64,000 nt of DNA from an uncultured Patescibacteria group bacterium (GCA_905478415.1 CAJQIG010000004.1:139523-203522), one strand, 5' to 3'; shown: positions 14,306-58,799, counted from the stretch's first letter. Numbers and translations: made by a program. Notes: generated by a model from the sequence alone, not told the origin.

Positions 14306-15484
14306 TTAATTAACAACTAATGTATAAACCTTTGAATCAGTTGCTCCTGCTGAATCAGTCAAAATAATTTCTGGATAGTATGTTCCCACCTCTTGGGCAG
14401 TTCCAAAAATCTCACACGTTATTCTTACTGATGCACCTCTGCTGTTTTGATTACAGTTCCCTAAAACTAGACCAGTAGGTAAGCCAGTAGCTGCCATTGA
14501 AAGAGTGTCCTGAAGGTCAGCATCCTGCCCTCTCACCTGAAAACTATAACTTTGTGTTGTCACTGTTGATGACAACCATGGAGTGGCGATTACAGGTGCA
14601 TTGTTACCTGTAATTGGTGTTGGTGAAGGGCTTGGCATTGGTGTTGGCGAAGGACTTGGCGTTGGTGTTGGCGAAGGACTTGGCGTTGGTGTTGGCGAAG
14701 GACTTGGCGTTGGTGTTGGCGAAGGACTTGGTGTTGGTGTTGGCGAAGGACTTGGTGTTGGTGTTGGCAGTGAATTCAAGTCAACAACGTTAAAATAGAC
14801 TCCAGTAAATTTTGCTCCTTGATCTTTATTTGCTGGATACTGAGCCTGGATCTCAACTTTATAAAAAGAAGCTCCATCTGGAATGTTTGTTTCCATAAAA
14901 CCAGTACTTGTCCATGCATGATTAGATCCAGTTCCAGTACTATCACTTACACTGAGTGGCACCCAAACTGGACTCCAAGGGCCATCTGCTGAATTAGACG
15001 AATAAATAGTTATGGTTGCTTGATCAATCCAACCAGTAACCCACTCTGTTTGAAACTGAAGAGTAGTATTTGCTGGATCTGCTTGAACGATCTGGTACAA
15101 ATAGGCATCGTACCCATTAATACCGAATCCATATCCCCCCTGACCATAGCCGCTTGCAAATCTTGCCGCAGTTCCACAATACAACTCATTAGCTCCACAC
15201 TTGCCAGAAACAATAACATCTGCGCTTGGATTCGATCTTTTTTGACTGATAGACCATAGGACCTCACCATTAGTATTTTTAGCTGTGTCTATAATCCAGT
15301 TATTTAAAGAAGCTGCATTAGTAACGACATCACTCCTAAACCAAGGGTTTAAAAGTAAATTCCCCTCAGGAAGAGTCCCCACTTGAACGGCCAGAACCGA
15401 TTTTGCATATAAAATAGCAGTCAATGAAAATATACCAATAAATACTACAAGTGATCTTTTAGCTATTGATATAAATGTATTCAT
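14306..15484 (-). CDS. secreted protein with PTPSPSPT tandem repeat linker and C-terminal putative-Ig (dystroglycan-type cadherin-like) domain
   Basis: signal peptide; ~13x (PSPSPTPT); ...[10 protein letters not shown] motif. Confidence 0.6.
14612..14772. repeat. tandem 24-bp DNA repeat (ggcgttggtgttggcgaaggacttg, ~6.5 copies) encoding the PS/PT linker
   Basis: directly visible perfect/near-perfect tandem copies. Confidence 0.9.
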
Positions 15485-15630
15485 TAGTTTGACCTTCTAT
15501 TCACTTTAAGTGATGTATATTAGTTTATATAGTACTGTCCGATAAGTATGTTTTCAAGTAGTAAATTATTTTTTGTCTTAATGTGAGTAGTACCTATTAA
15601 AGATGGATATGGGCATAGTAATTTTTTACT

Positions 15631-15828
15631 GGCGAGGAGAGTGGGATTCACGACTCGCTACAATCTATATCTTCTTAAGGAAGCTCGCATACACTAGGGT
15701 GACTCGCACAGTGTGCTCGTGTGCCCGTCGCGAACCATCTTCTGCATTCCTTGTTACGCACCGATATAAAAAAATAGGCATTAAGCCTATTTTTTTATAT
15801 GCGGGGAGCGTGGGATGAAATTGGAACT
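15631..15828. repeat. ~200-bp dispersed repeat, copy 1: two degenerate tRNA-3'-end-like segments flanking a hairpin; ~85% identical to 55633..55826
   Basis: tggcgaggagagtgggattcacgactcgctac ... tatatgcggggagcgtgggatgaaattggaac aligned by eye to the tRNA-Ser(TGA) downstream region. Confidence 0.7.
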
Positions 15829-15921: not shown

Positions 15922-18246
15922 TTATTTCCACTTGATTTTCCCACATTCACATCTACGACTATTATTCGAAGTATCTTTAAATTTAGTTACTGATTTATTA
16001 CACTCATCACATTCAAAAAAATTGAGAGCTTTTTCGCAAGAATCAATTAATTTTTTTGCCTCAACCTTAATTACGCTATATTCATGTGATGAACGATTAC
16101 CCCAAGATAACAACAATCTACTTGATTGCTTCATTGATTTTACTGCATCTAAATATGGAATATAACTTTCAGATTCCTTTATTAGGAATGATTTTTCCAT
16201 ATCTGGAATTAAGTCTAGTAAAAACTCTGAAGCTACTCTTACATCATTTCGTTCTCTATGTTTGTATTTCATTCTTACTTCTAGTTTTTCACATAATACT
16301 GCAAGACAATTATCCATAATTTTTCTACAATTATTTCCAGCTGAAGTTGCGTCATTTGATAACTTTGATCTTGCATCATCAAATGAGAACGTGTTTTTTG
16401 AAAATTGAATTCCTATCTCTGGATTTTCCCAAGGTTTTAATGTTTCAAATTCCCATTTATCATTTTCAAGTTGGTGTCTTAACTCTATAAACCACTCTCT
16501 ATCATGCGTTAAAATAAGTATCTGTCTCTCAGAAAATTCTTTTTCCAAGAGCTCAGCTACTAGTCCTCTATGATTTCTATCAAAACTTACTATCACGTCA
16601 TCTAAGAAAATTGGAATGTCTTTTTCATTACTATTTTTTGCCATTGAAAGGAAAATACATAATCCCAAACTATTTCTATGACCTTCAGATAAAGTTAATC
16701 TCGGTGACTCTAATTCTTTTCCATAAAATTTAAGGCCAATTTCTATTGCTTTATCTGTGTCTGAAGGAAGATATAATTTTATATCCTCAATTTTCTCATC
16801 AGGATGTAATATTTCCCACATTCTCGAAATATCTGAAGATATCGTAGTAATTATTTCAACAGACTTTTTTCTAATTTGATTTCTTATTTCTGATTCAGTA
16901 CCAGTAATAAAATCAATTAATGTAGTAATTCTATCTCTTTCTTTTATTCTTTTTTCGTTATTAAGAACATCTTTAATACCTTCAATTGTATTTTTATCAT
17001 CGTATAATGCTTGTAAATCCTGAGGCGTATCTTTTTTAGATTCAATCGCAGCAATAATTATTGGTTTAAATGTAGAACTAATTAGTTCTAATTGGTCTAT
17101 AGTACAACTGTTTCTGAGTTCGTTGAGATTTAAACTTTTAAATGGTTCCTCAATTTTCAAATCATTATTTTCTTTCCATTTTTTTAAAGACTCTTGATCA
17201 AAGTTTATTGTTAATTGTTCTATACTACTAACAAGATTATTGAGGTTTTCACGATGTGTTTGAAGGATTGTCATTGACTGTTCTAATCTGATAATTTCAG
17301 AATAAATATGATCTTTAAATTCCGAAACTTTAATTAATTTTCCACAAGCTGGACAGTCAATTTCCTCTTTATCAACAATTTCTTGAATAAAGTTTTGAGA
17401 TGAGTTTAGAATGTCAAGTTTTTCTTTAATTAAAGATTCAGATGAGTTTGCAAGTTCAGATAAACTCTCTTTTGAATTTTGAATCAACTGTAATAAATCT
17501 GAACCAGAAATTTTTTCTATTATTGTATATTCAGCATTTTGATTGCCATTTTGATTTATTTTCTCTTTATTTATTTTGCCTAAATTAGACAAAAAATCCT
17601 CATCTATTTCAATTTCTACATTATCACTTGTTTTGTCTAACTCTTTTGCTATATTTAAAATTTCATCTATTGTTTGATCATTAAATAGTAAATTCCTGCT
17701 TTGAGCTGAATTTTTAATATCTGTGTTGATTCCACTCAAATTTGCTTCACTAGCAATATTTCTTGCCAATTTTCTTAAGTTTTCAGCAGATATTTCTAGT
17801 TCACCTAAACCCAATAGTGGTAATAACGTTGAATACTTATCTCCTTTACTGCCCTTAATAAAATTTGATATTTCATCTTGCCTCAAGATTATTGTATGAT
17901 AATTTAACTTGTTAAGCATGTTGTCTGGAGGGGTAATTTGAACTGAACCATTTGGTTCAATTTCTGCAGATATTTGTGATTGATCTGTGAAAGTTATTAC
18001 TACTTTGGCATTATTATCTGCACTCATGTGAGTGTTAATTATAGATTTTTCTTGTCTACGACCGCTATACTCATTTGTTAAATGTAAAATTTTTCCATCC
18101 TTTATAATATATTCCATGCCATCTACAAAAGATGATTTTCCTGATCCATTTTCGCCATACAATACTTTTGATTTTTTATTAAGTTTGAGCGATGTAAAAT
18201 CTGATGCACCTCTGAACCAAGATAAGTCAATGTTTTTAATTTTCAT
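15922..18246 (-). CDS. Rad50/RloC-like ABC ATPase: Walker A, coiled coil with CPAC zinc hook, ABC signature, Walker B, H-loop, C-terminal ~190-aa domain with RX4H (HEPN-like) motif and terminal zinc ribbon
   Basis: GENGSGKSS (aa 31-39); CPAC at aa 298-301 mid coiled-coil; LSEGHRNSLGL; IFLDD; THDREW; RMKYKH; CDEC...CECG. Confidence 0.6.
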   Translation of the reverse strand: MKIKNIDLSWFRGASDFTSLKLNKKSKVLYGENGSGKSSFVDGMEYIIKDGKILHLTNEYSGRRQEKSIINTHMSADNNAKVVITFTDQSQISAEIEPNGSVQITPPDNMLNKLNYHTIILRQDEISNFIKGSKGDKYSTLLPLLGLGELEISAENLRKLARNIASEANLSGINTDIKNSAQSRNLLFNDQTIDEILNIAKELDKTSDNVEIEIDEDFLSNLGKINKEKINQNGNQNAEYTIIEKISGSDLLQLIQNSKESLSELANSSESLIKEKLDILNSSQNFIQEIVDKEEIDCPACGKLIKVSEFKDHIYSEIIRLEQSMTILQTHRENLNNLVSSIEQLTINFDQESLKKWKENNDLKIEEPFKSLNLNELRNSCTIDQLELISSTFKPIIIAAIESKKDTPQDLQALYDDKNTIEGIKDVLNNEKRIKERDRITTLIDFITGTESEIRNQIRKKSVEIITTISSDISRMWEILHPDEKIEDIKLYLPSDTDKAIEIGLKFYGKELESPRLTLSEGHRNSLGLCIFLSMAKNSNEKDIPIFLDDVIVSFDRNHRGLVAELLEKEFSERQILILTHDREWFIELRHQLENDKWEFETLKPWENPEIGIQFSKNTFSFDDARSKLSNDATSAGNNCRKIMDNCLAVLCEKLEVRMKYKHRERNDVRVASEFLLDLIPDMEKSFLIKESESYIPYLDAVKSMKQSSRLLLSWGNRSSHEYSVIKVEAKKLIDSCEKALNFFECDECNKSVTKFKDTSNNSRRCECGKIKWK

Positions 18247-18502
18247 CTTTTAGTAAATCTAATAACTTTCTACTTAGTTTTTCTGCTTGAGTTTTGCTAA
18301 TCTCATTTTGTTGCAACTCACCAGATAATTTATCAACTATTTCTGAAACAATTTTAGAACTTATGGTTTTCCCCTCTTTTGAAAGGTTTTCTACAGTTTT
18401 TTCTACAGTTTTTGATATTTGATTTTTATCCATACTCAGATTATACCACCAGGCTTTTTGCCTGCATAACTTTTCCAACCCGTACTCTTCCCCCCGCCTC
18501 AC
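18236..18502 (-). CDS. small helical protein immediately upstream of, and overlapping, the ABC ATPase gene
   Basis: 11-nt overlap with ATPase start; likely start MDKNQISK. Confidence 0.4.
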   Translation of the reverse strand: MRRGEEYGLEKLCRQKAWWYNLSMDKNQISKTVEKTVENLSKEGKTISSKIVSEIVDKLSGELQQNEISKTQAEKLSRKLLDLLKDEN

Positions 18503-18565: not shown

Positions 18566-18724
18566 TACTATCTGTGGTTTACCACCAGGCTATTTGTACA
18601 AGATAACTTTATTTGAACTCTTTTGATCCTTTTATTTATATAAAAATATAGTATATTTATTTTTAACTTAGACGTGCAAACGTTCTAGAGCTGTTTTTAA
18701 GAGCTACATCCATGACTATACGTC

Positions 18725-18922
18725 ATGAAAACACTATCAGATCAATGCAACCACAAAAGTGGTGTTGAATCTGTTGCTTATAAAACAAAAAATAATTTTT
18801 CCAAACAAAAAACTCAGCAACAAATACAATCCCAAGAAGATATAGAAATAGAACGCTCTCAGTATTATTTAGGTCGAGCTCTTCATCGTTACTCACTCCT
18901 TCAAAAAGAAAGGAGTAAGTAA
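18725..18922 (+). CDS. small hypothetical protein preceding Rep (TAATG overlap)
   Basis: ORF with translational coupling to Rep. Confidence 0.3.
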   Translation: MKTLSDQCNHKSGVESVAYKTKNNFSKQKTQQQIQSQEDIEIERSQYYLGRALHRYSLLQKERSK

Positions 18923-19764
18923 TGTCATTAGAAAATGATGCTCAAAATATTCTTGGTGCAGTACCTTTAGGTACAAACAAAGAACCTAGTGTGCGTCAGC
19001 ACACTACTAGACTTGATAATACCGGCACAAAAGAACCACCAAAACCAAGAGGTTTTACAAAAAGTAAAATTATTCAAAGTGGCTCACTAATTGAAAGTTA
19101 TGAGTATGAAATACCACTTCGTTATGGTTTTACGCCAAAGCCAAGAGTAAAGACTGCTCGAAAGAAATCTGAAAGAAGTGCAGAACATAGAACTAGAACA
19201 ATAATTCGTGCAGTTAACAATATTAGAAGATTAACTCATCTAAACTTTTCAGAGTATGACAAGTTTCTGACTTTCACCTTTGCAGATACTTTTGAATTTG
19301 ATATTAACAAGCTTGATGAATGCTTACCATATTATAAAAAAGCAATGAGAAAGCTAAGACAGTGGTATCCAAATTTAAAGTATATTACAGTTCCAGAGTT
19401 TCAAAAAAGGGGTGCAGTTCATTACCACCTTTTGTGTAATATTCCTAAAATAAGACAGTCTGAAATGAAGAAAATATGGCCTTATGGTTTCTTCAAAGTT
19501 AAAGAAATTCATGGAACTACACACCTGGCATTTTATTTAGTGAAATATTTATCAAAAAGGTTTGATGATAAACGTAAACAGGGTCATAGATTATATTATG
19601 CCTCTCGTGGTTTAAAGCGTCCTACTACTTTGTATGGTCCATATGCTGAGGCTATTACTAATAAGCTCAAAAAGGATCATTCTAATGCTGTACAATATGA
19701 AACTAATTATGATACTGAACATAATGGAACTGTTGATTATAAACAGTTTGTGAAAGAAAAATGA
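18922..19764 (+). CDS. rolling-circle replication initiator (HUH endonuclease, pC194/Rep_1-like)
   Basis: motif I FLTFTF, motif II VHYHLLC, motif III YLVKYLSK. Confidence 0.65.
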   Translation: MSLENDAQNILGAVPLGTNKEPSVRQHTTRLDNTGTKEPPKPRGFTKSKIIQSGSLIESYEYEIPLRYGFTPKPRVKTARKKSERSAEHRTRTIIRAVNNIRRLTHLNFSEYDKFLTFTFADTFEFDINKLDECLPYYKKAMRKLRQWYPNLKYITVPEFQKRGAVHYHLLCNIPKIRQSEMKKIWPYGFFKVKEIHGTTHLAFYLVKYLSKRFDDKRKQGHRLYYASRGLKRPTTLYGPYAEAITNKLKKDHSNAVQYETNYDTEHNGTVDYKQFVKEK

Positions 19765-21281
19765 AAACTATTATTTATTGTCGTAAATCAACTGAAGAAG
19801 ATTCTAGACAAACTCAATCTCTTGGTACTCAACAACGTTTGTTAATTGATCTAGCCACTCGTGAGAATTTGGAAGTTGTTGATATTGTTAAAGAATCAAA
19901 AAGTGCTAAAGAAGATCATAATAGACCTTTGTTTGCCAACATGTTGGAAAGAATACAAAATGGTGAGGCTGATTCGATCTTAGTTGTTCACACTGATCGT
20001 TTGGCTAGAAATCTAATCGATGCTGGATATATTATTAAGTTGATAGAACAAGGATTCTTAAAAGAAGTACGTACGTTAACAAATGTCTTTTTTGATGCTC
20101 CATCTTTAACATACATGGGTTTTGATTTTGTTTATGCTGCCCATTATTCAAGAGACCTATCTGTAAAAGTTAAAGCCGGTAATGAAAGTAAAGTGCTAAA
20201 AGGAGAATATCCAAGCTATGCTCCAATTGGATACATAAATATAAAGCCAGGTAAAGGTATTAAGCCAGATCCAATCAGAGCACCATTTATTACAAGAGCA
20301 TTTGAACTATTTGCTACTGGTGAATACTCAGTTAAAACTCTAGCTAAAAAATTGGCTAGTGAAGGATATAGATCAAGAAGTGGTAAAAAAGTTGCTACCT
20401 CTAGTTTACATAGACAAATAACTAATCCTGAATACTATGGTGTTATTCGAAGAGATGAAAAACTATATCCTGGAAATCATAAACCTTTAATATCCAAACA
20501 ATTATTTGATGAAGTTCAAAAAAGGCTTGCAAATAAAAGTAGGCCAAAAAAGCAAAAGTATAATTTTGTTTTCAGAGATTTTCTAACATGTGGTGAATGT
20601 GGTTGTAAAGTTACTGCTGGAATTACTAAAGGAAAATATATTTATTACAGATGTACAAATGGAAAAGGTAAATGTACTCAACATAAAAAATATAGAAGTA
20701 AACAAAAAGTTACAGATGTATTTCAGGAATTTTTTGGAGGTTTCACTCTCGATCCAGAAAGAGCAAACAAATCATTTAATTTATATAAAGATTCATTAAT
20801 AAAAGAAGATAATTATAAAAAAGATAGTAAAGACGCAATTAAGCAACAAATCGCAAATCTAAAAAGAAAATTAATAAGGATTGAGGATATTTATATTGAT
20901 GAACAAATTTCTTTTGATCGTTATAACGAAAGAAAAACTGAATTTGAAAATGAACTTGCTCAATTAAAAGTTTTATCTAAACAAAAAAATAATGTGGGGA
21001 CTCTAGAAACTTTGGAACTTGTTGAAGAAGTAAAAAATAGCTCGGTACAGCTGTCTAAAATTTTTGAAGAAGGAGATGACGAGGTAAAAAGAGATTTATT
21101 AAAATCTGTACTTTGGAACTGCGAATTTAAAGATGGAAAAATTACTTCTACCAGACTAACTAAATTGTGGAAACCACTTGAAAATCTTAATGATTCTCAC
21201 AATTTAGAAAAATGGCGGAGGGAGCGGGATTCGAACCCGCGGTATCTTGCGATACGGCAGTTTAGTAAACTGCTGCACTAG
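19761..21281 (+). CDS. large serine recombinase (integrase); last ~23 codons read through the adjacent tRNA gene
   Basis: N-terminal resolvase domain IIYCRKSTEEDSRQTQSLGTQQ; recombinase domain; Cys zinc ribbon CGECGCK...YRCTNGKGKC. Confidence 0.85.
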   Translation: MKTIIYCRKSTEEDSRQTQSLGTQQRLLIDLATRENLEVVDIVKESKSAKEDHNRPLFANMLERIQNGEADSILVVHTDRLARNLIDAGYIIKLIEQGFLKEVRTLTNVFFDAPSLTYMGFDFVYAAHYSRDLSVKVKAGNESKVLKGEYPSYAPIGYINIKPGKGIKPDPIRAPFITRAFELFATGEYSVKTLAKKLASEGYRSRSGKKVATSSLHRQITNPEYYGVIRRDEKLYPGNHKPLISKQLFDEVQKRLANKSRPKKQKYNFVFRDFLTCGECGCKVTAGITKGKYIYYRCTNGKGKCTQHKKYRSKQKVTDVFQEFFGGFTLDPERANKSFNLYKDSLIKEDNYKKDSKDAIKQQIANLKRKLIRIEDIYIDEQISFDRYNERKTEFENELAQLKVLSKQKNNVGTLETLELVEEVKNSSVQLSKIFEEGDDEVKRDLLKSVLWNCEFKDGKITSTRLTKLWKPLENLNDSHNLEKWRRERDSNPRYLAIRQFSKLLH

Positions 21282-21300
21282 GCCACTATGCGACCCCTCC
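21213..21300 (-). tRNA. tRNA, Ser-type (long variable arm, encoded CCA); anticodon loop UUACUAA so the apparent anticodon is ACU
   Basis: folded by eye: acceptor GGAGGGG/CCCCTCC, anticodon stem GCAGT/ACTGC, T-arm GGGTTCGAATCCC. Confidence 0.6.
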
Positions 21301-54354: not shown

Positions 54355-54463
54355 AATTGGAACTTTAGTTAGGTAGGAAGTTCATAACTCTTTACTCAGC
54401 TTAGTTTTTGCTAAAAACTAAACACTTGCTTTACTTTCATATTTATGCTAGTATAAATATACT

Positions 54464-54691
54464 ATGATAGAAATGAATGAATTTAAAAATACTGTTGGTG
54501 TAAATATTAAAAGTGTAAGAAAAATGCTCAATATTTCTCAAGAGGATCTTGCAAATAAAGCATGTGTTAAATATTCAAACTTAGTTAAAATTGAAAATTC
54601 AATAATAATAAAACCATCTGTTTATACAGTTTACCGTATCGCAAAAGCATTAGATACATCTGTAGAACATCTTATTGAGAAAAGAGATTAA
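54464..54691 (+). CDS. XRE-family HTH transcriptional regulator (islet)
   Basis: ISQEDLANKACVKYSNLVKIENS. Confidence 0.65.
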   Translation: MIEMNEFKNTVGVNIKSVRKMLNISQEDLANKACVKYSNLVKIENSIIIKPSVYTVYRIAKALDTSVEHLIEKRD

Positions 54692-54694
54692 AAT

Positions 54695-55039
54695 ATGAAT
54701 TATAAGAATAAAATACTAATGAAAATATACTCTGTTTTTCCTTTTGATCTATTTCCAGATACAATTTCCTTACAAAAAGATAAAATTGATATTACGCACA
54801 GACCTTTCTTTTTTACGAAAGAAGTATTCACTGTCTTTATCAATGATATTAGAACAATTAGAATTACTAGTGGTCCATTCTTTGCAACACTATCTTTTGA
54901 ACTAAAAGGTATGATGGAAAAACAAAATCCAGAACCAATTAGTTTTTTGAGAAAAAAAAGTGCACAAAAAATAAGAAAAATGGCTCTTAATCTTTGCGTA
55001 AGTCAATCTAAGAAAAAAAAGAAAAATTCCAAAAATTAG
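54695..55039 (+). CDS. small hypothetical protein
   Basis: ORF adjacent to regulator; AT-rich. Confidence 0.35.
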   Translation: MNYKNKILMKIYSVFPFDLFPDTISLQKDKIDITHRPFFFTKEVFTVFINDIRTIRITSGPFFATLSFELKGMMEKQNPEPISFLRKKSAQKIRKMALNLCVSQSKKKKKNSKN

Positions 55040-55086
55040 TAGAAATATTCTGAGTTATAAACTTAGTTATTATCTATATTTATATT

Positions 55087-55116
55087 ATGCGGAGAGCATG
55101 GGGTGAAATTGGAAAT
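55087..55116. repeat. degenerate tRNA-3'-end-like att relic (atgcggagagcatggggtgaaattggaaat)
   Basis: near-identical to 15799..15828 and inverted at 57639..57669. Confidence 0.6.
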
Positions 55117-55126
55117 TTAGTTAGTA

Positions 55127-55486
55127 TTAAACTAATAACTGAATAAAAACCATTACAATTTTCCATAAGAAATATAATCCTGTTGATAGTCCCAGGAATC
55201 TTCTCCAATTATTAACACCATAAAAAAGCTCTAGATACGACCAGTAAAGCATGGCTATAGCAACACCCCAGAAACTCACTGATATTAAAAAATCATTTTT
55301 TATAAATCCTAAGAGATAGAAAAAAATCGCTAGCCAGAGAGGTTGATTGGGAAATTGGCCAATGACTATTTTCCCCTGAGGTGTTTTGAAGGGGTTGTTC
55401 ATAAAAAATATTCTTTTTAAATTGTATAGATTTAGAATTAGTATATCACTTGTAAATAAGCATGAAATTTTTAAAAATAGATGCAT
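55127..55486 (-). CDS. small membrane protein
   Basis: 3-4 TM helices. Confidence 0.4.
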   Translation of the reverse strand: MHLFLKISCLFTSDILILNLYNLKRIFFMNNPFKTPQGKIVIGQFPNQPLWLAIFFYLLGFIKNDFLISVSFWGVAIAMLYWSYLELFYGVNNWRRFLGLSTGLYFLWKIVMVFIQLLV

Positions 55487-55632
55487 TAATTGATGGAATA
55501 CAAAATCATCAAATTAAACTCGTTTCAGAACACTCATATGACTTGAGAGTTGTTTCAAATGATGATCACAAAACTTACATTGCATTTTGTAAAAAACATT
55601 TGAAGATAACTTATTTATCTCAAAATTAATTT

Positions 55633-55808
55633 GCGGAGAGCGAGGGATTCACGACTCGCTACTATTTATATCTACTTATGGAAGCTCGCATGCACTAAGC
55701 AGGTGTTTCGCAGGTGCTCAACACTTGCTGGCGCGAACAATCTTCTGCATACCAAACCACACCCCGATATACAAAAAAATGAGCTATTAGCTCATTTTCT
55801 TGTATATG
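55633..55808. repeat. ~200-bp dispersed repeat, copy 2: 23-nt direct copy of tRNA-Ser(TGA) 3' end (55633..55660) plus spacer with hairpin, abutting the real tRNA
   Basis: tgcggagagcgagggattcacgactcgc vs tRNA end gcggagagcgagggattcgaaccc. Confidence 0.7.
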
Positions 55809-55891
55809 CGGAGAGCGAGGGATTCGAACCCACGGGCCCCGAAAGGCGCGGTTTTCAAGACCGATGCAATTGACCACTCTGCCAGCTCTCC
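55809..55891 (-). tRNA. tRNA-Ser (anticodon UGA), no encoded CCA
   Basis: anticodon loop CTTGAAA; long variable arm; T-arm GGGTTCGAATCCC. Confidence 0.8.
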
Positions 55892-55985
55892 ATGTTGTAT
55901 GTTACTGGTTTGTTTTTTATTCTGGTACAAACACTAACCAGGTAGCCATTATATACTGACTTGCCTACTTTTTCGAGCAGAAAAT

Positions 55986-56924: not shown

Positions 56925-57010
56925 GGAGGGATGTCGGAGTGGTTTAACGGCCAGCTCTCGAAAAGCTTGGGGGACCATGTCCCACGGGGGTTCGAATCCC
57001 CCTCCCTCCG
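56925..57010 (+). tRNA. tRNA-Ser (anticodon CGA)
   Basis: anticodon loop CTCGAAA; long variable arm; T-arm GGGGGTTCGAATCCCCC. Confidence 0.75.
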
Positions 57011-57060
57011 CACATCAAGAGACATAAATTCACTTTGGAACTATGTTGTATACTTAGCTT

Positions 57061-57633
57061 ATGAAATTTATATCAACAGACAAACCTTTTCCTGTATTTT
57101 CCTTAGAAGCAGATCGTGACTACATTCTTTCTAGATTAATTAATTTCTCAGGTAGTGGATTTTCTTCTAGAGCTGGATATTTTGGACAGCAAGCAATAGA
57201 AAAATACTTCAAAGCTCTTATGGTCAGTCAAGATAAAAATTACATAAAAGAACATGACTTAATTGTTTTATCAAAATATTGTTCTAAGTATGATTCAAAA
57301 TTTGGAAAAGAAGAGTTTCTAGAAAAAATTAAAATCTTTGATGATTTTAGAGAAGTTGGCAGATATGGTGGCGAATCATCATACGATCCTCATTCAAAAG
57401 ATGAAAAGTATTTTAAAACAGCTGGTGTTTATAGTTGGACAGGAACAAATATAAAAATACTCGATGAATTAGTAAGTGCCATAAGAATAAAATTAAATTT
57501 TGAAACAATAGGTTTTAGTGATTCATTAAATGAAATTGCTAAGGATAGTAAAAAAGATTTCCTCGCAAATGAATGGAAACTACCTATTAATCTAAAAGAT
57601 ATACTGACAACAGATAATAGTTTTTTTAGTTAA
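57061..57633 (+). CDS. hypothetical protein (possible HEPN-like helical protein) carried on the islet
   Basis: ORF between tRNA and its direct repeat. Confidence 0.35.
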   Translation: MKFISTDKPFPVFSLEADRDYILSRLINFSGSGFSSRAGYFGQQAIEKYFKALMVSQDKNYIKEHDLIVLSKYCSKYDSKFGKEEFLEKIKIFDDFREVGRYGGESSYDPHSKDEKYFKTAGVYSWTGTNIKILDELVSAIRIKLNFETIGFSDSLNEIAKDSKKDFLANEWKLPINLKDILTTDNSFFS

Positions 57634-57890: not shown

Positions 57891-58799
57891 CTAGCTATCT
57901 ACACGCCAATAGTTAAGTGCATCATTAAATGTACTTGGGAATTGATTTTTTACCTTCTCGACCAGTATTTGATTGCCTCGTTCTTGTTTCATAACAGAAT
58001 TTTTTATTATTTCCCAATAATCATTCTGATCTTCCGAAGGATAATTATCCTTTAATTTGAGTAAAAAATCTTTAATAAAAGGTTTCAATCCACCTCCTAA
58101 ATCCAAATGGAAGAAAGATGCTATTTGAAATGTATATCCATTTCCTTGAAACTCTGATTCATTTGACTTATGAAGCCTTAAGAAGGCTCGTTGTTTTTGT
58201 ACTAACTTTAAAATCGTTTCATTTTTTTTACTAATTGGGAGAACAAATGGCACTATACCAAAAAGTTCTAGACTCTCAGGACTAACTGGTTCAACTTTAT
58301 TAGAAATAGTCTTAGCTAGGAGTAAGTTTATAAGCAAATTAATCGTTTTAACTGCAACTTTCTTATCAAAATTCGCTAATTCATTTGCTTCTATTTTACT
58401 AAGATTATTGGATGTTCGTAGAAAATTTTCCTCTTCTACTGATAGGAGTCCGTCTCGAAGATTACCGTTCTTTATTTTTTTAAAAATTCTAGAAAACATA
58501 CTTTCTGGATTATATGTCAAAATGTTTTGAAATTGCTTATAAAGTTGATCTTCATCATAGAAAACTACTAAATCAATATCAGTATATTCAGCTGAGTCTT
58601 TAGTGAGTATCTTATTTTTAGTTAATGATCCATAAACAGAAAAAGCTATCTCTATTGATTGATCAACACTAAAACGAAGTTGATCCTTAATTTTATTTCT
58701 GCTTGTGACTAATTGTGAAATCCGATTTCTTGATATTTCATCTGAAGAGACCCTCCAACGTCTATCAGAATTTGGTTCGTAGTTTATTTTAATTGTCAT
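57891..58799 (-). CDS. Pol-beta-superfamily nucleotidyltransferase (MNT fold); candidate CD-NTase/SMODS-like or antibiotic NTase
   Basis: VYGSLTKNKILTKDSAEYTDIDLVVF = hG[GS]x(9-15)[DE]h[DE]h motif. Confidence 0.5.
   Translation of the reverse strand: MTIKINYEPNSDRRWRVSSDEISRNRISQLVTSRNKIKDQLRFSVDQSIEIAFSVYGSLTKNKILTKDSAEYTDIDLVVFYDEDQLYKQFQNILTYNPESMFSRIFKKIKNGNLRDGLLSVEEENFLRTSNNLSKIEANELANFDKKVAVKTINLLINLLLAKTISNKVEPVSPESLELFGIVPFVLPISKKNETILKLVQKQRAFLRLHKSNESEFQGNGYTFQIASFFHLDLGGGLKPFIKDFLLKLKDNYPSEDQNDYWEIIKNSVMKQERGNQILVEKVKNQFPSTFNDALNYWRVDS

Follow-up and report, generated by a model that had tools for sequence, protein, structure and literature searches.

The locus considered here raises the question of what a Rad50-like gene is doing in a short mobile element of an uncultured Patescibacteria group bacterium: whether it encodes a repair factor, a tRNA nuclease of known type, a toxin, or a defence protein of another kind. 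It lies in a stretch of 64,000 nucleotides (GCA_905478415.1, CAJQIG010000004.1:139523-203522), called the window below, and all positions are counted from the first letter of that stretch. A sequence-only reading had proposed a RloC-type anticodon nuclease or another anti-phage ABC effector with a small upstream partner. All features of these two genes lie on the minus strand.

Architecture of the Large Protein

The large gene (15922-18246, stop codon included), supported by the ORF, homologs, Pfam, PADLOC, and AF2 modeling, encodes 774 aa, with Walker A, the CPAC pair, the ABC signature, Walker B, and the H-loop arranged as described in the sequence-only reading. The frame is no chance ORF, because it has 368 homologs, the best 120 of which are full-length with 40-46% identity and E-values down to 1e-210. 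Pfam SMC_N matches the protein (2.3e-11), and its full-length AF2 model (pLDDT 82.7) displays a split head, an antiparallel coiled coil, and a beta-hairpin hook.

The N-terminal lobe of the ATPase head (aa 1-147; 17806-18246) was delimited by AF2 secondary structure, and Rad50 and SMC heads match it by sequence and fold. It contains the Walker A or P-loop motif GENGSGKSS (aa 31-39; 18130-18156), whose K37 is kept in 235 of 237 members. The C-terminal lobe (aa 481-603; 16438-16806), where the AAA_13 and SMC_N matches stop, carries the signature LSEGHRNSLGL (aa 519-529, with LSEGH at 519-523), Walker B IFLDD (aa 546-550), a D-loop S554-x-D556, and the H-loop THDREW (aa 580-585, with H581), so that Walker A, signature, Walker B/D-loop, and H-loop follow each other in the order expected of RloC. 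S520, D549, D550, and H581 are conserved at 100% in the 237-member alignment. Walker B has a D-D pair in place of D-E, and since the residue after the Walker B Asp is thus an invariant Asp and not the usual catalytic Glu, the ATPase may work slowly or in an atypical way. By sequence, the closest solved structures to the head are Rad50 heads; SMC, JetC, and LmuB match it as well.

Between the lobes, an ascending coiled-coil arm (aa 148-290; 17377-17805; AF2 helices 148-288) and a descending arm (aa 307-480; 16807-17328; AF2 helices 307-480) run antiparallel and are joined by a beta-hairpin (aa 295-306; 17329-17364; strands 295-297 and 304-306), which bears C298-P-A-C301 at 17344-17355. C298, P299, and C301 are present in 100% of the 237 members and in every distant clade, bearing out the earlier view of a zinc hook in the middle of the coiled coil. 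As a whole, this part of the protein is an ABC ATPase of the Rad50/LmuB-like kind, with a coiled coil tipped by a CPxC zinc hook.

HEPN Domain, Predicted Active Site, and Zinc Ribbon

The C-terminus of the protein consists of a HEPN-fold domain followed by a four-cysteine zinc ribbon. The domain (aa 622-742; 16021-16383) is a four-helix up-down bundle (helix 1, 633-655; helix 2, 672-686; helix 3, 699-721; helix 4, 727-742) with a beta-hairpin insert (687-697) between helices 2 and 3, which is the HEPN hallmark. Structure comparison returned the HEPN fold anticipated earlier, the best matches being classical MNT-type HEPN proteins (matches include 5yep, 7ae2, and 8xdj). Because hhalign revealed no similarity between the HEPN-domain profile and a classical HEPN protein elsewhere in the window (probability 0.2%), the assignment is one of fold and motif position, not of sequence.

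The motif first taken for the catalytic site, the RX4H sequence RMKYKH (aa 658-663), is variable among the homologs and was abandoned. Strong conservation was found at two other places. R641-K-I-M-D645 in helix 1 (Arg-x3-Asp; 16312-16326) has R641 in 100% and D645 in 98% of the members, and in three distant clades position 645 is Glu, giving Arg-x3-Glu there. N717-R-S-S-H721 at the C-terminal end of helix 3 (16084-16098) includes the predicted catalytic His, with N717 at 97%, S720 at 86%, and H721 at 99.6%; H721 is the sole non-Cys residue invariant in all five clades and lines up with the last residue of RNEVGAH, the canonical R-N-x4-H sequence found in a sister clade from Bacteroidota.

HEPN proteins carry their Rx4-6H motif where helix 3 ends, and its Arg is followed by a polar residue; variants are known in which the Arg has moved elsewhere, and some domains are non-catalytic (PMC3710099). 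The Arg position of this motif is Gly or Ala in the clade of the window protein, with H721 and N717 nearly invariant and correctly placed, so catalysis hinges on an assumed substitute Arg. R641-x3-D645 is of the same pattern as the Arg-X3-Glu...His triad of PrrC and RloC (PMC2610378), and, judged by sequence, R641-x3-D645 with N717-x3-H721 is the likely active site. The near-invariant polar residues at this site, together with the canonical RNx4H of the sister clade, argue for a retained enzymatic site. The loop with N667 and D668 was modeled at low AF2 confidence (pLDDT about 46).

The terminal CxxC...CxC zinc ribbon of the sequence-only reading (aa 746-774; 15925-16011) is seen in both the conservation and the AF2 model: C746-x2-C749...C766-x-C768 accompany three short strands (756-758, 763-765, and 771-773), and the four cysteines are conserved at about 100% in the 237 members and in every distant clade.

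The Small Upstream Partner

The gene upstream of the ATPase, described earlier as an overlapping ORF of 88 aa, is real, conserved, and indeed overlapping, its stop lying 11 nt inside the ATPase start (ATGAAAATTAA), while its length is probably 65 aa. The 88 aa are a mechanical reading (18236-18502), starting at GTG 18502. Most likely, translation begins further inside, with the ATG at 18433 (18236-18433). This start lines up with the homologs in colinear alignments (A3, A5), an extended -10 (TGGTATAAT) precedes it by 7 nt, and public gene calls likewise give 65 aa. The -10-like element (18440-18448), read from the sequence, could be a short-leader or leaderless promoter; it counts as weak evidence, because generic promoter and terminator scans of the region did not rise above shuffles.

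An HMM of the partner, built with the window copy left out, picked out this gene and no other from the complete set of six-frame ORFs in the window (E 3.9e-5), and it detected a partner at each of 63 genome loci out of 63, so the conserved small gene suspected in the homologs' neighbourhoods is there. Among eight distant plasmid relatives, the partner is annotated in seven and was found by translation in the eighth, unannotated one (L104); the core-clade HMM detects none of the distant-clade partners. In all inspected loci, the gene overlaps or abuts the ATPase start. The encoded proteins are small (about 65-80 aa), helical, and mostly acidic (median pI 5.3), and they have no relatives in Pfam, PADLOC, NCBIfam, or the PDB, resembling neither LmuC nor known antitoxins.

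The Mobile Element and Its Surroundings

The two genes are the cargo of an element of ~5.6 kb with Rep and large serine recombinase genes, integrated at a tRNA-Ser gene, in agreement with the AT-rich integrated element recognized earlier. Its GC content is 28-33% from about 15.6 to 21.2 kb, compared to about 40% in the flanks. On the plus strand, an orphan ORF of 65 aa (18725-18922), also called in public assemblies and without a Pfam match, abuts the start of a rolling-circle-type replication initiator (Rep; 18922-19764; Pfam PF23343 REP_ORF2-G2P, 6.6e-20), followed by the large serine recombinase or integrase (19761-21281; Pfam Resolvase, 1.8e-16; Recombinase, 8.1e-16; Zn_ribbon_recom, 3.1e-7). 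The 3' end of the latter runs into the tRNA-Ser gene (anticodon ACT; 21213-21300, minus strand; ARAGORN, and Rfam tRNA with 50 bits), which is the right-hand attachment site. At 15630-15649, coinciding with the GC drop, the 3' end of the tRNA recurs in degenerate form and probably marks the left-hand end. This copy reaches a local alignment score of 23, while 300 shuffles gave 15.3 +/- 1.8 with a maximum of 21; another tRNA-like remnant, at 15804-15816, was not significant. The identical 774-aa protein occurs on 22 public contigs in the same context every time, so no empty site was seen.

The neighbourhood had also been called rich in tRNA-Ser, and the window does contain five such genes. The functional link implied by that description is not supported: no evidence was found that ties this richness to a tRNase function, and the adjacent tRNA-Ser serves as the integration site.

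Distribution and Genomic Neighbours of the Family

Relatives occur in about 104 of 185,579 species (about 0.06%). These species belong to many phyla of Bacteria and Archaea, with CPR members as well as haloarchaea among them, and five clades were compared; so rare and patchy a spread is what accessory genes that move horizontally typically show. A profile of the HEPN domain and zinc ribbon retrieved only 215 clusters among 1.84 billion representative proteins, all of one architecture, with no RloC, PrrC, or other family among them. The family as such has no entry in Pfam, NCBIfam, or PADLOC. No relatives pointing to a phage or viral origin were found in IMG/VR contigs or GenBank phages.

As had been stated for the window locus, a SbcD-like partner is absent: neither SbcD/Mre11 nor another nuclease partner was seen in more than 70 loci, the window locus included, and no conserved third gene emerged from 115 flanking ORFs of 60 loci. 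An archaeal relative from Halorhabdus lies inside a BREX-5 operon, between pglX and pglZ, and at a further locus (L004), BrxL/PglZ lie 3 kb from the module. A relative from Roseibium adjoins DarT, RES, and TIR genes; others adjoin patatin/ThiF, MPN, integrases, transposases, or Tn7-like TniQ/TniB. Neighbours in the core clade include some type I RM, AbiV-HEPN, and BrxH/DrmD-like helicase genes, but these defence genes are a minority among mostly metabolic and housekeeping genes. RefSeq gives relatives the GO term 'double-strand break repair'.

Comparison with Known Systems

The best defence model for the window protein is PADLOC LmuB PDLC03865 (1.3e-21). This model matches 27 of 27 family members (to 2.8e-34), PDLC03859 matches 26 of 27 (to 2.3e-32), and relatives cover a 611-position LmuB model over its full length. 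Across the family, LmuB, mad3, and PDC-S06 rank highest among the PADLOC models; the last, a candidate system without a description in the text of its paper, was rejected as an identity, giving partial matches only. Lamassu senses DNA ends via LmuB and LmuC (PMC12663957). Lamassu, also DdmABC or ABC-3C, shares with our module a LmuB-type ATPase with a zinc-hook coiled coil, the general logic of a Rad50-like DNA sensor controlling a toxic effector, and a small gene directly 5' of the ATPase gene, as LmuC precedes LmuB (PMC12663957). The differences are that the element has no separate LmuA with a docking CTD, the effector-like HEPN domain being fused to the ATPase C-terminus instead, and that the partner of about 65-80 aa matches no PADLOC LmuC model in profile comparison. 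PADLOC-type Lamassu rules need LmuA plus LmuB and would miss this locus. A HEPN effector fused to LmuB was not found described in the literature searched.

Fusions of ABC ATPases to a C-terminal HEPN domain arose repeatedly in mobile islands, as exemplified by APECO1_4465 and ERFG_01251 of the 2013 HEPN survey. ERFG_01251 was described with a 'classical' MNT-type HEPN, the same type as our best structural matches; the survey's descriptions of both proteins, on which this comparison is based, mention no zinc hook, terminal zinc ribbon, or small partner. SbcCD/Mre11-Rad50 has the same head fold, likewise with a coiled coil and a CxxC hook, and there, too, another gene precedes that of the ATPase, coding for a polypeptide that binds the coiled coil or head. 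Unlike SbcCD, our module has no phosphoesterase nuclease subunit nearby, its coiled coil is much shorter, HEPN domain and zinc ribbon are appended, and the gene is not vertically conserved.

For RloC, we compared Pfam and PADLOC profiles and published descriptions (Davidov & Kaufmann 2008; Klaiman et al. 2012). Its anticodon nuclease is switched by the zinc hook and a DNA-dependent ATPase, an internal switch with which it spreads without an external silencer (PMC3458546), and the nuclease pattern is Arg-X3-Glu-X36-52-His, often with Ser before the His (PMC2610378). Both proteins are single chains of similar length (about 800 aa) with a split ABC head, a coiled coil, a central CxxC near residue 300 (C291 in GkaRloC, C298-C301 here), and a C-terminal HEPN-type domain with Arg-x3-acid in an upstream helix and Ser-His further downstream; both are sporadic, horizontally spread, and sometimes found within R-M or BREX-type loci. 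Here, the pattern reads R641-X3-D645-X75-S720-H721, with a spacer of 75 in place of 36-52 and Asp in place of Glu (Glu in distant clades). The invariant CxxC...CxC ribbon and the translationally coupled, obligate small partner set the family apart from RloC, which was described as a self-regulated single gene, and RloC was found in 72 of 850 genomes (PMC2610378), compared to about 0.06% of species here, making this family about 100-fold rarer.

While the RloC-like architecture of the sequence-only reading stands, membership in RloC or PrrC is not shown, and it is the LmuB models that match best. No HMM from Pfam or PADLOC 2.0.0, PrrC model included, places the protein in RloC/PrrC, and the window protein has no match to Pfam AAA_13 (PF13166) at E<=0.1. 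AAA_13 is above gathering score in 22 of 27 family members, at about profile positions 235-599 of 713, which cover the ATPase and never the nuclease part. The sole PADLOC PrrC match is marginal and confined to the ATPase of one distant relative (E 9e-4). PrrC itself is alike in that an ABC ATPase governs a C-terminal HEPN RNase with an Arg-x3-acid...His triad, and in sitting inside another defence system, as does the BREX-5-embedded relative; it differs by its length of about 400 aa, by lacking coiled coil, zinc hook, and zinc ribbon, and by being silenced by the linked EcoprrI type I R-M instead of a small partner.

Function, Alternatives, and Significance

Most likely, the module, uncharacterised and unnamed so far, is related to two anti-phage systems, RloC and Lamassu. 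By analogy with these, we consider it moderately probable that the 65-aa and 774-aa genes form a self-contained mobile conflict module that works against phages or plasmids by abortive infection on the RloC/Lamassu principle. A defence function is inferred here from the architecture and the genomic association.

Three other explanations have to be weighed. The module might primarily be a toxin-antitoxin (addiction) system, with the HEPN ATPase as toxin, the small protein as labile antitoxin, and phage defence secondary. We regard this as rather unlikely, even though the small gene comes first with a stop/start overlap (11 nt in the window) as in type II systems, the partner is mostly acidic, HEPN domains are often toxins of such systems (as in the 5yep, 7ae2, and 8xdj matches; PMC3710099), other genes of this type (DarT, RES) are among the neighbours, and the module travels on plasmids, in Tn7-like context, near IS elements or integrases, and, at the present locus, in an integrative element. 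A Rad50-like sensor of 800 aa with an invariant hook and intact ATPase motifs exceeds the needs of a simple toxin and points to regulated DNA sensing, the partner has no DNA-binding or known antitoxin domain in Pfam, PADLOC, or the PDB, and many core-clade copies are chromosomal, among housekeeping genes and off recognizable mobile elements. Addiction and defence roles can coexist.

That the protein is a plain but divergent RloC ortholog, i.e., the known tRNA anticodon nuclease excising the wobble nucleotide, is improbable. The shared domain order, the CxxC at about residue 290-300, the Arg-X3-acid...Ser-His residues, the similar length, and the AAA_13 matches of most members speak for it, but these matches are ATPase-only and absent from the window protein, LmuB, mad3, and PDC-S06 are the better PADLOC models, and the HEPN/zinc-ribbon profile stays within its 215 clusters; the Arg-to-His spacing, the Asp, the zinc ribbon, the obligate partner, and the rarity are likewise foreign to RloC. 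Least credible, and in our judgment very improbable, is a repair or maintenance factor of the SbcC/Rad50/RecN type, in which the HEPN-like bundle and ribbon would be non-catalytic binders and the small protein an adaptor. It would fit the Rad50 heads as nearest solved structures by sequence, the RefSeq GO term, the existence of non-catalytic HEPN domains (PMC3710099), and the missing canonical Arg of this clade. Against it speak the lack of a nuclease partner in more than 70 loci, the extremely sparse distribution, the location within mobile elements and, in one relative, within a BREX operon, and the near-invariant polar residues of a HEPN site that is fully canonical (RNx4H) in the sister clade.

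If the module is a defence system of the RloC/Lamassu kind, two ATPase chains would dimerise via the zinc hook and ATP-dependent engagement of the heads, and the dimer would survey DNA like Rad50, LmuB, or RloC, for ends and breaks or for replicating foreign DNA. At rest, the HEPN domains would be occluded or separated from each other. In this state, the small partner, whose gene is placed like LmuC before LmuB and the SbcD C-terminal domain before SbcC, would serve as an inhibitor, an adaptor, or a specificity factor. DNA sensing with ATP binding or hydrolysis might then rearrange the heads bearing the HEPN domains, two of which would pair. Their RNase site, independent of metal, would consist of H721, N717, R641, and D645, to which D668 and R670 might be added. 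The RNA cut could be tRNA anticodon loops, by analogy with RloC and PrrC, with mRNA or rRNA equally possible; the zinc ribbon probably helps to bind the nucleic-acid substrate, and cleavage would lead to translation arrest in the infected cell.

A wider reading, which we put forward tentatively and consider to fall somewhat short of an even chance, is that of an undescribed bacterial and archaeal two-gene immune superfamily of at least five clades, combining a Lamassu/Rad50-type zinc-hook DNA sensor, a HEPN RNase with zinc ribbon in cis, and a fast-evolving micro-protein that governs it in the role of LmuC or the SbcD CTD. Were this true, the superfamily would connect, in evolutionary terms, Lamassu as a sensor of DNA ends with a detachable effector to RloC as a sensor of DNA damage with a fused anticodon nuclease, and the HEPN catalytic Arg would migrate between helix 3 and helix 1 among the clades.

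ABC/SMC sensors joined to toxic effectors are a major theme of prokaryotic immunity (Lamassu, RloC, PrrC, PARIS, Gabija, OLD), and the route from Rad50-like DNA sensing to the effector is just beginning to be understood. The family described here is a compact, covalent version of this theme, with sensor and RNase in one chain and a single 65-aa partner. Even if it served for addiction only, it would be unusual as a very large, ATP-dependent toxin. If active, it would represent a new RNA-targeting branch of the Lamassu/RloC lineage and a tractable model of hook- and ATP-controlled HEPN activation, and it would mean that very small integrative elements, with Rep and a serine integrase in about 5.6 kb, carry immune cargo.

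The ATPase and Its Predicted Anatomy

The large protein is encoded by an ORF of 774 aa on the minus strand (15922-18246), overlapped at its 5' side by a mechanical ORF of 88 aa (18236-18502, minus strand). Both had been described in the sequence-only reading, and the motifs that it listed lie where it placed them, including CPAC at aa 298-301 (nt 17344-17355). A sequence search revealed 368 matching database proteins, the best 120 of which are 771-805 aa long and align over their full length with 40-46% identity and E-values down to 1e-210. The locus lies within a GC trough of 28-33% at about 15.6-21.2 kb, compared with about 40% for the genome, and an open frame of 2.3 kb in such AT-rich DNA rules out a chance ORF.

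Pfam recognized only a generic SMC_N/AAA_15 head, and the nearest solved structures by sequence are the heads of Rad50 and SMC proteins. An AlphaFold2 model based on an alignment of 27 homologs (mean pLDDT 82.7) displayed an N-terminal head lobe (aa 1-147), ascending helices (aa 148-290), a short beta-hairpin carrying C298 and C301 (aa 295-306), a descending helix (aa 307-480), a C-terminal head lobe with the signature motif, Walker B and H-loop (aa 481-603), a helical domain (aa 622-742) and a three-stranded mini-domain, the zinc ribbon (aa 746-773). Compared via Foldseek, the whole model matched Rad50, SMC, JetC and LmuB structures with no clear preference among them. Among the 237 family members surveyed, the hook residues C298, P299 and C301 showed 100% conservation, and so did S520, D549, D550, H581 and the four terminal cysteines; the Walker B aspartate is always followed by Asp, in place of the usual Glu.

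The Small Partner

The small partner is real and obligate. In each of six metagenomic contexts, drawn from different lineages, a gene for 65-80 aa lies directly 5' of the ATPase gene and overlaps it. By a simple ORF rule it was detected in 57 of 63 genome loci, and an HMM trained without the window copy recovered it in the six others, in one of which an IS element separates the partner gene from the ATPase gene; the partner suggested by the sequence-only reading thus proved to be present in 63 of 63 loci. Among all six-frame ORFs of the window, this HMM matched only the ORF at 18239-18502 (E 3.9e-5). The alignment begins at an internal Met (MDKNQ...), corresponding to the ATG at 18433 (minus strand), with an extended -10 (TGGTATAAT) 7 nt upstream, and public gene calls likewise give 65 aa. 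Its stop codon overlaps the ATPase start (ATGAAAATTAA). The sequence pattern of the partner family is that of a helical protein, and most of its members are acidic (median pI 5.3); the family has no relatives in Pfam, PADLOC or the PDB.

Distant clades of the ATPase also carry a small overlapping upstream ORF (53-81 aa), with no detectable homology to the partner of the core clade; in L104, the locus of a Hymenobacter plasmid relative, it is present though unannotated. Upstream of the partner gene, a 17-nt direct repeat, TACCACCAGGCT(T/A)TTTG, occurs in two copies 136 nt apart (18444-18460 and 18580-18596), one of them overlapping the extended -10. This repeat may serve as an operator or regulatory site.

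The HEPN Domain and Its Predicted Active Site

The C-terminal helical domain of the ATPase has a HEPN fold, as had been anticipated. In helix 1, R641 (100%) and D645 (98%) are conserved among the 237 members, and the C-terminal end of helix 3 carries conserved N717 (97%), S720 (86%) and H721 (99.6%); D668 and R670, just ahead of helix 2, and E729, at the start of helix 4, also belong to the conserved polar residues. N717-x3-H721 sits at the canonical HEPN catalytic position, where the place of the canonical Arg is taken by Gly or Ala in the core clade. The RX4H motif proposed in the sequence-only reading, RMKYKH (aa 658-663), is unconserved among homologs; that reading was largely right, but the motif on which it rested was wrong.

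The triad of RloC and PrrC has been described as Arg-X3-Glu-X36-52-His, often with Ser before His (PMC2610378), and the pattern in the window protein is R641-X3-D645-X75-S720-H721. Three distant clades have Arg-x3-Glu in helix 1 (RKLLE, RRFLE, RRMGE), the very pattern of PrrC/RloC. In the Bacteroidota clade (Fibrella, Hymenobacter), which has KAGVLLE, the helix-1 Arg is missing and the canonical HEPN motif LIRNEVGAHFN is present instead; its His aligns to H721. When the C-terminal regions of all five clades were aligned, H721 and the four ribbon cysteines were the sole invariants. The helix-1 Arg and the motif Arg are complementary between clades, as would be expected from these alignments if either arginine may serve the same site; a survey of HEPN domains knows families where another basic residue stands in for the motif Arg.

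The Carrier Element and tRNA-Ser Sites

The AT-rich integrated element inferred in the sequence-only reading could be substantiated. Beside the pair lies a gene for a rolling-circle-type Rep (PF23343, 6.6e-20), whose start codon is abutted by an orphan ORF of 65 aa (18725-18922, plus strand), found in public assemblies too and matching no Pfam family, which may encode an excisionase or a regulator of the element. A large serine recombinase follows (19761-21281, plus strand), the last ~23 codons of which lie inside a tRNA-Ser gene on the opposite strand (21213-21300, minus strand; ARAGORN, Rfam tRNA 50 bits) that forms the right end of the element, so that the C-terminus of the recombinase derives from att/tRNA sequence and excision would alter it. 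The anticodon of this tRNA is ACT. In bacteria, A at position 34 is normally confined to tRNA-Arg(ACG), and a normal tRNA-Ser(GCT) is present elsewhere in the window; tRNA-Ser(ACT) could be a hybrid or an element-supplied tRNA resulting from integration in or near the anticodon loop.

The left end is probably at 15630-15649, the position of the GC drop, where the 3' end of the tRNA-Ser recurs in degenerate form with an alignment score of 23 (300 shuffles gave at most 21). Another, weaker look-alike (15804-15816) was not significant in the shuffle test, and the look-alikes possibly include remains of an older insertion too. Bounded in this way, the integrative element measures about 5.6 kb, and the module is its sole evident cargo. 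The exact 774-aa protein was found on 22 public contigs, always in the same context. Downstream of the ATPase gene, at 15764-15800, an AT-rich inverted repeat has perfect arms of 16 nt around a 5-nt loop (ATATAAAAAAATAGGC / GCCTATTTTTTTATAT). It looks like a bidirectional terminator; a scan for G+C-rich terminators did not pick it up. Just left of the element, a 392-aa protein (14306-15484, minus strand) has a signal-peptide-like N-terminus and a long (PSPTPT)n low-complexity linker, and yielded only a spurious repeat match in Pfam.

Five tRNA-Ser genes (ACT, GGA, GCT, TGA, CGA) lie within 36 kb (21213-57011), several flanked by low-GC DNA, and they appear to be recurrent insertion sites in the source genome. 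Directly after tRNA-Ser(CGA) (56925-57011), a second low-GC patch encodes a classical HEPN-domain protein (57061-57633, plus strand; PF05168, 2e-10) beside a 302-aa ORF (57891-58799, minus strand) showing an NTase-like DIDLVVF motif and no Pfam match; the patch may be a toxin-antitoxin islet of HEPN/MNT type beside a further tRNA-Ser. A third patch (54400-55900, 32-34% GC), ahead of tRNA-Ser(TGA) (55808-55891), contains two orphan ORFs (114 and 119 aa), of which one looks membrane-like and neither has a Pfam match.

Relatives, Neighbours and Distribution

A tblastn search against plasmids uncovered relatives of the ATPase at 21-30% identity; all eight that were inspected are about 797-822 aa long and share a CPxC hook around residue 296-300 as well as the terminal CxxC...CxC. 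Apart from the partner, no neighbour is conserved: the 115 nearest flanking ORFs, taken from 60 genomes, included no Pfam family more than three times, and no pairing with SbcD/Mre11 was seen, which agrees with the absence of an SbcD-like nuclease noted before. A minority of neighbours is of defence type, namely type I methylase/HsdM, AbiV-type HEPN, RmuC and BrxH/DrmD-like helicases. The associations that stand out most are the following. On Halorhabdus tiamatea pHTIA (locus L094, NC_021913.1 307689-310353), a distant two-gene relative lies within a BREX-5 operon, flanked by pglX and pglZ and read in the same direction; it is a textbook case of "guilt by embedding" that PADLOC 2.0.0 seems not to name. 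BrxL/PglZ lie 3 kb from the locus of another relative (P0050), and in Roseibium the pair stands between DarT and a RES toxin gene, close to a TIR protein. Other relatives adjoin Tn7-like TniQ/TniB/transposase genes, integrases, IS elements, patatin and ThiF, or an MPN protein. In the Fibrella and Hymenobacter plasmids (L103 and L104), patatin and ThiF genes adjoin the locus and an MPN/JAB gene is near; patatin, ThiF and MPN/JAB are typical components of ubiquitin-like (Bil- or CBASS-type) defence systems.

When 185,579 species, each represented by one genome, were scanned with a degenerate pattern and the matches confirmed by tblastn, 104 relatives emerged. An exhaustive HMM search with a HEPN plus ribbon profile gave 215 clusters among 1.84 billion representatives, all full-length matches sharing this one architecture. 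The family occurs in CPR/Patescibacteria, Chloroflexota, Acidobacteriota, Planctomycetota, Nitrospirota, Alphaproteobacteria and Cyanobacteria, and among archaea in Bathyarchaeia, Thermoplasmatota and Methanobacteriota; it was not found on the phage and viral contigs searched (IMG/VR and GenBank phages).

Comparison with Known Systems

ABC-HEPN fusions were catalogued as a class in a 2013 survey, comprising PrrC, RloC, APECO1_4465 and ERFG_01251. In RloC, the DNA-dependent ATPase activates the anticodon nuclease, and mutations in the hook do so too (PMC3458546). In its architecture the window protein is an RloC look-alike, and to this extent the RloC-type reading stands; membership in RloC is not supported. 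AAA_13 alignments of relatives end at profile position ~599 of 713, short of the nuclease domain, and the window protein has no AAA_13 match at all; this family has an obligate partner, in contrast to RloC, which has been described as self-sufficient; and both the spacing of the triad and its acidic residue differ. The closest sequence match of the sensor is LmuB of Lamassu (1.3e-21; up to 2.8e-34 in relatives). LmuB with LmuC recognizes DNA ends, whereupon the effector is released; the LmuC gene immediately precedes that of LmuB, in the same way that the sequence for the SbcD CTD precedes SbcC (PMC12663957; bioRxiv 2025.03.14.643221). Membership in Lamassu fails because there is no separate LmuA, and an identity as SbcCD was rejected as well. 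The searchable literature yielded no account of a zinc-hook ATPase that combines a HEPN domain, a zinc ribbon and a small partner. The family is unannotated, rare but phylogenetically widespread, combining the layout of RloC with a Lamassu-like sensor and an extra partner.

Proposed Function

The computed features comprise a zinc-hook ATPase of Rad50/LmuB type, a HEPN-fold domain retaining His at the catalytic position, a zinc ribbon and an obligate micro-partner, and the contexts of the module are mobile and partly linked to defence. We consider it reasonably probable that the pair is a conflict module. The ATPase would dimerise via its hook and heads and sense aberrant or foreign DNA, ATP-driven head movements would pair the two C-terminal HEPN domains into an active RNase, and translation would be shut down. 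The zinc ribbon may aid substrate binding, and the partner may restrain or tune the HEPN switch. That tRNA is the specific target of this RNase is much less certain, and we regard it as a doubtful suggestion. The main rival is a pure addiction (toxin-antitoxin) module, a role that is compatible with defence.

For the conflict module proposed here, the function is a prediction, and nothing in the finding contradicts current concepts. The family is a natural but undescribed member of the world of ABC sensors, and one that is experimentally tractable.
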